Below, in pieces: positions 39,086-39,759 of a DNA stretch of 64,000 nt; position 1 is the stretch's first letter, and each line of letters starts with the position of its first letter. This stretch comes from Leptonemataceae bacterium (GTDB lineage Bacteria > Spirochaetota > Leptospiria > Leptospirales > Leptonemataceae). Below the pieces are notes generated by a model. That model was not told where the DNA came from and searched no databases. It saw only the letters and a program-made list of their open reading frames with translations. A program made the translations under genes and the position numbers. The stretch spans positions 3,104,001 to 3,168,000 of the forward strand of contig OZ245742.1 of NCBI GenBank assembly GCA_965227295.1. Direction: 5' to 3'.

Positions 39086-39759
39086 ACGCCCCGGATCGTG
39101 GTGTAAGTTACGGCCAGTTTGAGTTAAGAATATTTTGGTCACAACTGGTTCCAGCTGACGAGCGGAGGTCATGCCGGGGATTTTGGTAAGGCGGACCGGA
39201 ACGGCGTCTTCGCCGCAAGAAAGGCTTCGGTAGCTGAGTCGCAAACCGACGTCCGGGTCGAGGCGGACTGTCTTAACAAAACGAAAATCCACAACTCCGA
39301 AGAGCCGTAGCCAAATCAACCCCTTACCCATTGCGCAACTTACCTTGTGTGTCTCACGGTAAACGCCGCGAGATAGAGCTCTTGAACTACCGAAAACGTT
39401 TGATTCGTTCGAGTACGCCCCGAATCGTGGTGTAAGTTACGGCCAGTTTGGATTAACACTTTTGTGGTCACAACTGGTTCCAGCTGACGAGCGGAGGTCA
39501 TTCCGGGGATTTTGGTAAGGCGGACCGGAACGGCGTCTTCGCCGTAAGAATCGCTACGGTAGCTGAGTCGCAAACCGACGTCCAGGTCGAGGCGGACTGT
39601 CTTAACAAAACGAAAATCCACAACTCCGAAGAGCCGTAGCCAAATCAACCCCTTACCCATTGCGCGACTTACCTTATGTGTCTCACGGTAAACGCCGCGA
39701 GATAGAGCTCTTGAACTACCGGAAACTTTTGTTCGTTCGAGCACGTCCCGAATTGTGGT
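39086..39759 (-). ncRNA. Tandem pair of 329-bp structured non-coding units (candidate ncRNA array)
   Basis: Units 39086-39414 and 39415-39742 differ at about 19 positions; 17-bp ACGYCCCGRATYGTGGT at 39086, 39415 and 39743; many stems, including a minus-strand C(UUCG)G hairpin. The repeat is certain, the ncRNA call is inferred. Confidence 0.6.

Follow-up and report, generated by a model that had tools for sequence, protein, structure and literature searches.

A high-copy, lineage-restricted family of extragenic 330-nt repeats in a Leptonemataceae genome and a tandem pair of its units between convergent genes

MITEs such as Correia, ERIC and RUP are non-coding, multicopy, non-autonomous and intergenic. 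In the Neisserial dRS3/RS arrays a short palindromic repeat bounds variable RS units, and these arrays are mosaic, with patchwork variation and interleaved families. PMC3733652 and PMC3116915 describe placement of the REP type and its reiteration in tandem, and in CGTC-tagged REPs, as tabulated in Table 1 of PMC3733652, CGTC is followed by an 8-9 bp stem with a 4-5 nt loop.

The window analysed here is a stretch of 64,000 nt from the genome of a Leptonemataceae bacterium (G000, a 5.94-Mb single contig, C1) that appears to be uncultured. In this analysis, placement in the Leptospira order is based on the LA_3751-family match of the left flanking gene (Table 1). The first-pass annotation had described a gap between two convergent genes (37372-39078, plus; 39780-41114, minus) filled by two tandem units and three copies of a 17-nt box, 'R', and had read the whole as a candidate RNA system, highly structured. 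The layout was confirmed: the genes are convergent, the units (329 and 328 nt) are 94% identical with 19 differences at a spacing of 329, and the box begins at 39086, 39415 and 39743. The difference between the units at 39337/39666 is also present, and the complementary arms that had been named exist in both copies. The element does not end at the outer boxes, as supposed in calling R-unit-R-unit-R complete. In a wrap-around profile alignment, 39080-39788 comprises unit positions 325-330, 1-330, 1-330 and 1-48, positions 18-48 of the third copy included, and the array extends from 2 nt past the left stop codon to 8 nt inside the right gene (Table 1). The TAA stop codon of the latter, an acyltransferase-3 (AT3) gene, occupies 39780-39782 on the minus strand and falls in positions 18-48 of the third copy. 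Neither flanking-gene protein was found in two congeneric genomes (G001 and G002) with the queries used.

Table 1. Features of the array and its neighbours in the window (for the array and its parts, + is the family consensus orientation)
Feature	Position	Strand	Description
Whole array	39080..39788	+	Two full units and a short partial unit at each end, head to tail
Unit 1	39086..39414	+	329 nt; best identity outside own array 85%
Unit 2	39415..39742	+	328 nt; 94% identical to unit 1; best identity outside own array 86%
Partial third unit, positions 1-48	39743..39788	+	Holds the third 17-nt box and the AT3 TAA stop
17-nt box 'R'	39086..39102, also 39415-39431, 39743-39759	+	Conserved box internal to the unit
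Genus-level core, unit 1 copy	39250..39316	+	~72-nt core
Genus-level core, unit 2 copy	39579..39645	+	Core-model match G000:C1:3143562-3143647
Left module	39103..39202	-	Weak likeness to the inverted, decayed GTAGC end of the core plus flank
Left flanking gene, LA_3751/LA_3752-family putative glycosyltransferase	37372..39078	+	NF047440, E 6e-87, over cut-off; outside the element
Right flanking gene, acyltransferase-3	39780..41114	-	PF01757, E 7e-23; stop codon in element-derived sequence

The possibility of an assembly artefact was checked with Logan contigs from runs X1 and X2, which belong to one study and possibly represent the source sample. These contigs join both flanking genes to the array, reaching from the left gene to 39165 and joining the right gene from 39677, and they cover the unit-specific stretches 39410-39494 and 39619-39701, none of them crossing the entire array. 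Since the flanking genes are linked to the array and unit-specific pieces are covered, the pair is not an assembly duplication.

Two other loci in the window deserve mention. An open reading frame of 2449 codons (23705-31054) resembles a polymorphic toxin gene: its translation has repeats similar to FG-GAP and to RHS/YD, a stretch similar to inteins and a variable C-terminal domain. The region 42826-46438 carries genes for an aromatic ammonia-lyase (minus strand), a photoactive-yellow-protein-like protein (TIGR02373, E 1e-31, below the cut-off) and an acyl-CoA ligase (plus strand), and looks like a putative PYP photoreceptor locus with the chromophore-making genes.

The pair is one of many and not unique. 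With unit 1 as the query, nhmmer returned 345 matches, 94 of them near full length, at 114 loci, which together occupy 74.5 kb or 1.25% of the genome. The wrap-around profile found 118 loci, of which 110 were retained at a score of at least 100; the arrays total ~210 unit equivalents (212, in 478 segments) of a 330-nt repeat unit. All arrays are head to tail, with a median length of 658 nt and a maximum of 2376 nt. Unit lengths are 320-333 nt, with two to six stop codons per frame and no 3-nt periodicity. A coding repeat was rejected, the long open minus-strand frame of the window copies being absent from the family. A CRISPR array was likewise rejected, because what lies between the 'R' boxes is repeated too, at 80-94% identity. 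The genome does contain several CRISPR arrays (G000:C1:780556-786056), unrelated to the 330-nt family, with repeats that we take to be type I-E-like. Another repetitive locus, G000:C1:4552305-4553463, consists of a perfect 14-nt microsatellite of ~1.1 kb beside one of four copies of a group II intron-like reverse transcriptase gene.

Array ends are scattered over the circular unit, with two favoured zones, one near the 'R' box and the other at unit positions 110-160. Since arrays begin and end at so many positions of the circular unit, 'R', which has 77 exact matches to its 17-nt pattern in the genome, is an internal box; the edge histogram makes it a preferred edge and not an obligatory one. 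No target-site duplication was detected over the 110 arrays, the longest word shared by the two edges being 3.45 nt compared with 3.49 nt in shuffled data. Insertion of whole units was also considered and dropped as unconvincing, array start and end being in the same phase in 29 of 86 cases against 22.7 +/- 3.8 in shuffled data. The suggestion that a non-autonomous element had inserted twice at one site was thus right as to the kind of element, and was not borne out as to the mode, given the internal position of 'R', the permuted ends and the missing target duplication.

Placement was evaluated with the gene calls made in this analysis (~4900 genes). Of the 827 convergent gaps 56 contain an array, as do 46 of the 3173 same-direction gaps and 6 of the 827 divergent ones (odds ratio 5.5, p 7e-17). 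Array edges that face a stop codon lie at a median of 11 nt from it, 118 of 161 being within 30 nt, and those facing promoters at a median of 101 nt. Among the arrays of same-direction gaps, 21 are read in sense and 26 in antisense (p 0.56). Over all arrays, a mild replichore bias places 67 of 110 in leading-strand orientation (p 0.028). No protein family recurs beside the arrays in this genome. The family is extragenic, high-copy, lineage-restricted and enriched downstream of genes.

Identity between units is 88% within arrays (44 pairs) and 80% between arrays (4421 pairs), it is independent of genomic distance beyond ~10 kb, and the nearest neighbour lies in the same array for 38 of 67 units. 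The closest matches of the two window units elsewhere are just 85-86% identical, which indicates that the pair arose by local duplication. Within each unit, conserved boxes stand at set distances from one another, separated by variable windows, and 152 of 330 columns are at least 95% invariant (62 units). The variation is organised in allele blocks of 5-10 nt, of which nearly all combinations were seen in 58 units, one per array. In pairwise tests of these blocks, with one block unscored, p exceeded 0.1 in five of six pairs and was 0.009 in the remaining one. Judged from the sequences, such combinations are the signature of presumed short-patch recombination.

Units are interrupted by recurrent insertions of 34-70 nt at positions 69, 114, 135, 175 and 210 (12, 18, 44, 16 and 13 copies, respectively). 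These cassettes, which are absent from the window pair, form strong hairpins, with DNA folding energies of -10 to -27 kcal/mol. The 'cap' hairpin at position 135 covaries at three base pairs, with paired fractions of 0.65, 0.87 and 0.91 against 0.29, 0.50 and 0.61 expected (23 distinct copies), and true compensatory change was found in the optional cassettes only. Many arrays stop at unit positions 126-147, and about 25 end in the cap hairpin, which also occurs internally in units and is missing from most arrays. Of the 48 matches to the motif of the cassettes at 69 and 175, arrays contain 28, and most of the remainder belong to a second repeat family, which shares this hairpin cassette with the 330-nt family. 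Members of the second family are 120-180 nt long, rich in mini-hairpins and found throughout the genome (e.g. G000:C1:2562930 and 5892269).

A BLAST search with the unit gave weak partial matches in one of 60 relatives, and these defined a genus-level core of ~72 nt comprising a CGTCCGGG box, an AAAACG box, a CCRCAWCTC box and a CCGTAGC box at fixed spacing. Two models of the core, both sequence-only, detected 15 (R1) and 17 (R2) matches in G001, and 24 (R1) and 25 (R2) in G002; in G000 there are 200 core matches, 198 of them inside arrays. Core matches were absent from the 39 other family genomes screened (R1) and from the 150 phylum genomes screened (R2), with models built from G000-G002 that may therefore miss distant relatives. 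Homologues numbered zero among viral contigs and zero among plasmids and phages; metagenomes gave no matches and then one doubtful match at a contig end. A pattern scan of GTDB returned 13 loci, of which the four inspected are apparent chance matches lacking the other boxes. In a literature search on Leptospira and Leptospirales, which covered few subscription journals and no supplements, no such repeats were described.

Congener cores are mostly single and intergenic, often at the 3' end of a gene, and no protein family recurs beside them when N-termini are compared by eye. Behind a fliN-like gene both congeners carry an inverted core doublet, and G000 has an array there. Of 42 congener core sites 39 were examined, and 32 have a matching neighbour gene in G000, with an array at three and none at 29. 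That only three of 32 comparable sites carry a G000 array indicates that the element gains and loses sites, and since the cores of the two congeners are mostly at other sites, the element moves. The left module of the unit weakly resembles the inverted core: the consensus alignment score is 43.8 against 29.3 +/- 4.8 for shuffles, of which 6 in 1000 reach the score, and weak nhmmer matches occur in 26 of 62 units, never above 4.3 bits. From this likeness the G000 unit may be a decayed core doublet plus linkers, which is offered as a lead and not as a result.

The search for a mobiliser covered G000-G002, which are 93% complete by markers. Neither PF01797 (Y1/RAYT) nor NF047646 matched in any of the three genomes, and both detected their controls; PF04986 (IS91 Y2) was also without match in all three, its control likewise, so that this search is uninformative. 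PF01797 aligns just partly to some TnpA-REP classes, yet retrieved all of them according to a section of PMC6006769. No long, ORF-bearing copy of the 330-nt repeat was found in G000. IS110 elements that target REPs are known. IS110 was rejected as the mobiliser here, its sole G000 copy (L099, G000:C1:95522-96700, NF033542 over cut-off) having landed in a member of the second repeat family; none was found in G001 or G002. Also set aside were a stand-alone GIY-YIG gene, which adjoins no array, and an integrase-type IS, which is contained in one array and has five of its six copies elsewhere. In the array concerned (G000:C1:1034580-1036082) the IS has split the array within the GTAGC box, leaving a duplication of 6-7 nt.

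Two GxxExxY genes of the PD-(D/E)XK nuclease type (PF13366, TIGR04256; L068, G000:C1:1864531-1864881, and L071, 978925-979269) were rejected as well, being flanked by other repeats and neither by the 330-nt family. Each has a short repeat on both sides as an inverted pair, and one of these repeats occurs genome-wide as 158 exact 16-mer copies, none of them in the 330-nt arrays. The pairing resembles that of RAYT and REP, with an enzyme of a different, non-HUH class, and a literature search covering few subscription journals yielded no description of these repeats. Because these nuclease genes lie between inverted high-copy repeats, spread by a non-HUH nuclease plus repair may be possible for the 330-nt family too. 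Copies of these GxxExxY-linked repeats also occur in the window (3580-3726, 5490 and 48129), where an inverted doublet, ~150 nt apart, lies just past the tRNA-Gly gene.

The description of the pair as highly structured was not borne out by the folding tests. The MFE z-score of unit 1 is -1.0 on the minus and 0.0 on the plus strand, so folding is no better than that of shuffled sequences, and mean z-scores for 20 of 62 units are +0.2/-0.2. Rfam gave no match at gathering or E-value thresholds (best E 2.4). For the six helices that had been named no covariation was detected, pairing being equal to the independence expectation at each pair (121-205 distinct copies). Intact helices number 7 among 178 copies for TCTCGCGG/CCGTGAGA (H1) and 13 among 205 for CCAGTT/AACTGG (H6), and on the minus strand AGTCGC/GCGACT (H2) is kept in 105 of 146 copies and H3 in 66 of 169; the UUCG loop allele is present in 12 of 62 units. 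The structure conservation index (SCI) is 0.19-0.22, the consensus fold of 61 units reaching -20 to -24 kcal/mol, where single copies reach about -105. The alifold energies are better than those of column shuffles (z-scores of -2.1 to -4.7, stronger on the minus strand, in a control of 14 shuffles that destroy stacking context), a gain due mainly to short stems, the 7-bp CTACGGC hairpin among them. In 62 full units of 79% mean identity, the pairs with the highest mutual information are non-complementary and close together (4-9 nt), and linkage does not rise above background beyond 10-20 nt.

What remains for a multicopy structured non-coding RNA transcribed from the minus strand is a slightly better consensus energy on that strand, variation limited to G-U-compatible changes in AGTCGC/GCGACT and the outer 7 bp of the CTACGGC hairpin, and the empty Rfam result, which leaves novelty possible. 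The minus strand is G/T-rich, however, which favours G-U pairs by chance, and the CTACGGC hairpin picks up mismatches in the congener cores, whose alignment folds to -2.3 kcal/mol. With two-sided covariation lacking, most of the named helices broken in most copies, an SCI of 0.2, permuted ends and arrays facing both ways, such an RNA is very improbable. The balance of sense and antisense arrays also speaks against an RNA read through from one particular strand; transcripts, if any are made, would come from read-through of either neighbour, and on present evidence the window pair is not an RNA system. The stops at unit 126-147, followed in ~25 arrays by the cap hairpin, could alternatively mark true termini of a lost rolling-circle or Y1 transposon (IS91 or IS200-IS605 type), the arrays being concatemers from one-ended transposition. 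Although the mild leading-strand bias and the missing target duplication agree with such relic ends, the cap also occurs inside units and is missing from the window array and from most others, and neither an ORF-bearing copy nor a transposase of this kind was found, which makes this origin hardly credible.

An origin as a domesticated cis element is quite unlikely, if less so. The boxes would bind a host protein (a nucleoid organiser, gyrase or a termination factor) and relieve convergent transcription or organise the chromosome, and the arrays would be selectively kept and spread by recombination only. The strongly conserved boxes, whose spacing is constant across three species, the enrichment in convergent gaps, some sites common to the congeners, including the fliN-like 3' end in all three species, and the failure of PF01797 and NF047646 to detect a transposase in the three genomes would fit this role. 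It is opposed by the ten-fold difference in copy number among congeners (200 against 17 and 25), by the 29 of 32 comparable sites that are unshared, and by confinement to one genus (0 of 39 family and 0 of 150 phylum genomes). Domestication is compatible with the preferred explanation and not exclusive of it.

The preferred explanation, with a probability of about 0.78, is that the pair is a local tandem duplication within a genome-wide non-coding, non-autonomous, interspersed mosaic repeat family. Layout, mosaicism and turnover of this family are observed in the genomes; for the copying step we infer that an enzyme working on DNA in trans would place copies of the core, or of a piece containing it, at new dispensable positions behind genes, probably through a single-stranded or circular intermediate. 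Such an intermediate would explain both the permuted array ends and the missing target duplications. In the species represented by G000 the 330-nt composite would have become the amplified unit, and its arrays would grow locally by unequal recombination or rolling replication, as suggested by the higher identity within arrays than between them. Short-patch recombination among ~200 copies would shuffle allele blocks and cassettes, the second repeat family included, and selection would purge insertions in genes and promoters, leaving the gaps at gene ends. Most likely, the boxes are recognised by the mobiliser or by a DNA-binding protein of the host. Some host selection is possible, since the boxes are kept better than neutral decay suggests and several core sites are common to the congeners. 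It is a bolder and rather unlikely proposal that the family represents a mobile repeat class defined by unstructured boxes, spread without a RAYT or IS200-type enzyme via circular or rolling intermediates that give permuted concatemers, with a scaffold that trades hairpin cassettes with other families.

Among known systems, MITEs share with the 330-nt family its non-coding, multicopy, non-autonomous and intergenic nature. A MITE was nevertheless rejected, because terminal inverted repeats, fixed ends and target duplications are lacking, and here tandem arrays are the rule. The long intergenic mosaic arrays, interleaved repeat families and patchwork variation recall Neisserial dRS3/RS arrays (in small part after PMC3733652), whereas the present unit order is fixed, the boxes are non-palindromic and no palindromic repeat bounds the units. 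The closest resemblance is to REP/BIME/REPIN, as portrayed in parts of PMC8266576, PMC3116915 and PMC3733652: hundreds of extragenic, lineage-restricted copies that favour convergent and same-direction gaps, occurrence as singles, inverted doublets and head-to-tail arrays with linkers, and copy numbers that vary among related species. As in SBW25, the orientation of the arrays depends somewhat on the replichore. When inverted motifs were sought, tandem reiteration was seen, a clear inverted core doublet was present at one site in G001 and G002, and inverted similarity in the G000 unit was weak.

REPs are palindromes of 20-50 nt preceded by a 5' GTAG-type tetranucleotide, in contrast to a 330-nt unit with a 72-nt core. 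This core is not palindromic; its GTAG stands at the 3' end (unit 223-226) and is followed, in consensus folds, by A-rich unpaired sequence without a stem. Unlike in CGTC-tagged REPs, the CGTC that begins the core has a best local stem of 4 bp, intact in 113 of 194 copies. Hairpins are optional cassettes here and not the conserved part, and the three genomes lack a RAYT gene detectable with PF01797 or NF047646. Because the tagged palindrome and the RAYT are both wanting, the family is not classed as a BIME/REPIN member; the best reading is a selfish mosaic repeat that resembles BIMEs and REPINs but lacks the hallmarks of REPs. The analysis adds a genus-level core with a single-to-array history, a count of site turnover, covarying cassettes at fixed positions and the sharing of cassettes between families. 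The 330-nt family is thus a large, long-unit relative of BIMEs in a genus without detectable RAYT, and its history is visible in two congeners with a sparse 72-nt core and a third with a composite in 200 copies, which makes the genus a natural test of how REP-like arrays originate and spread without the textbook enzyme.
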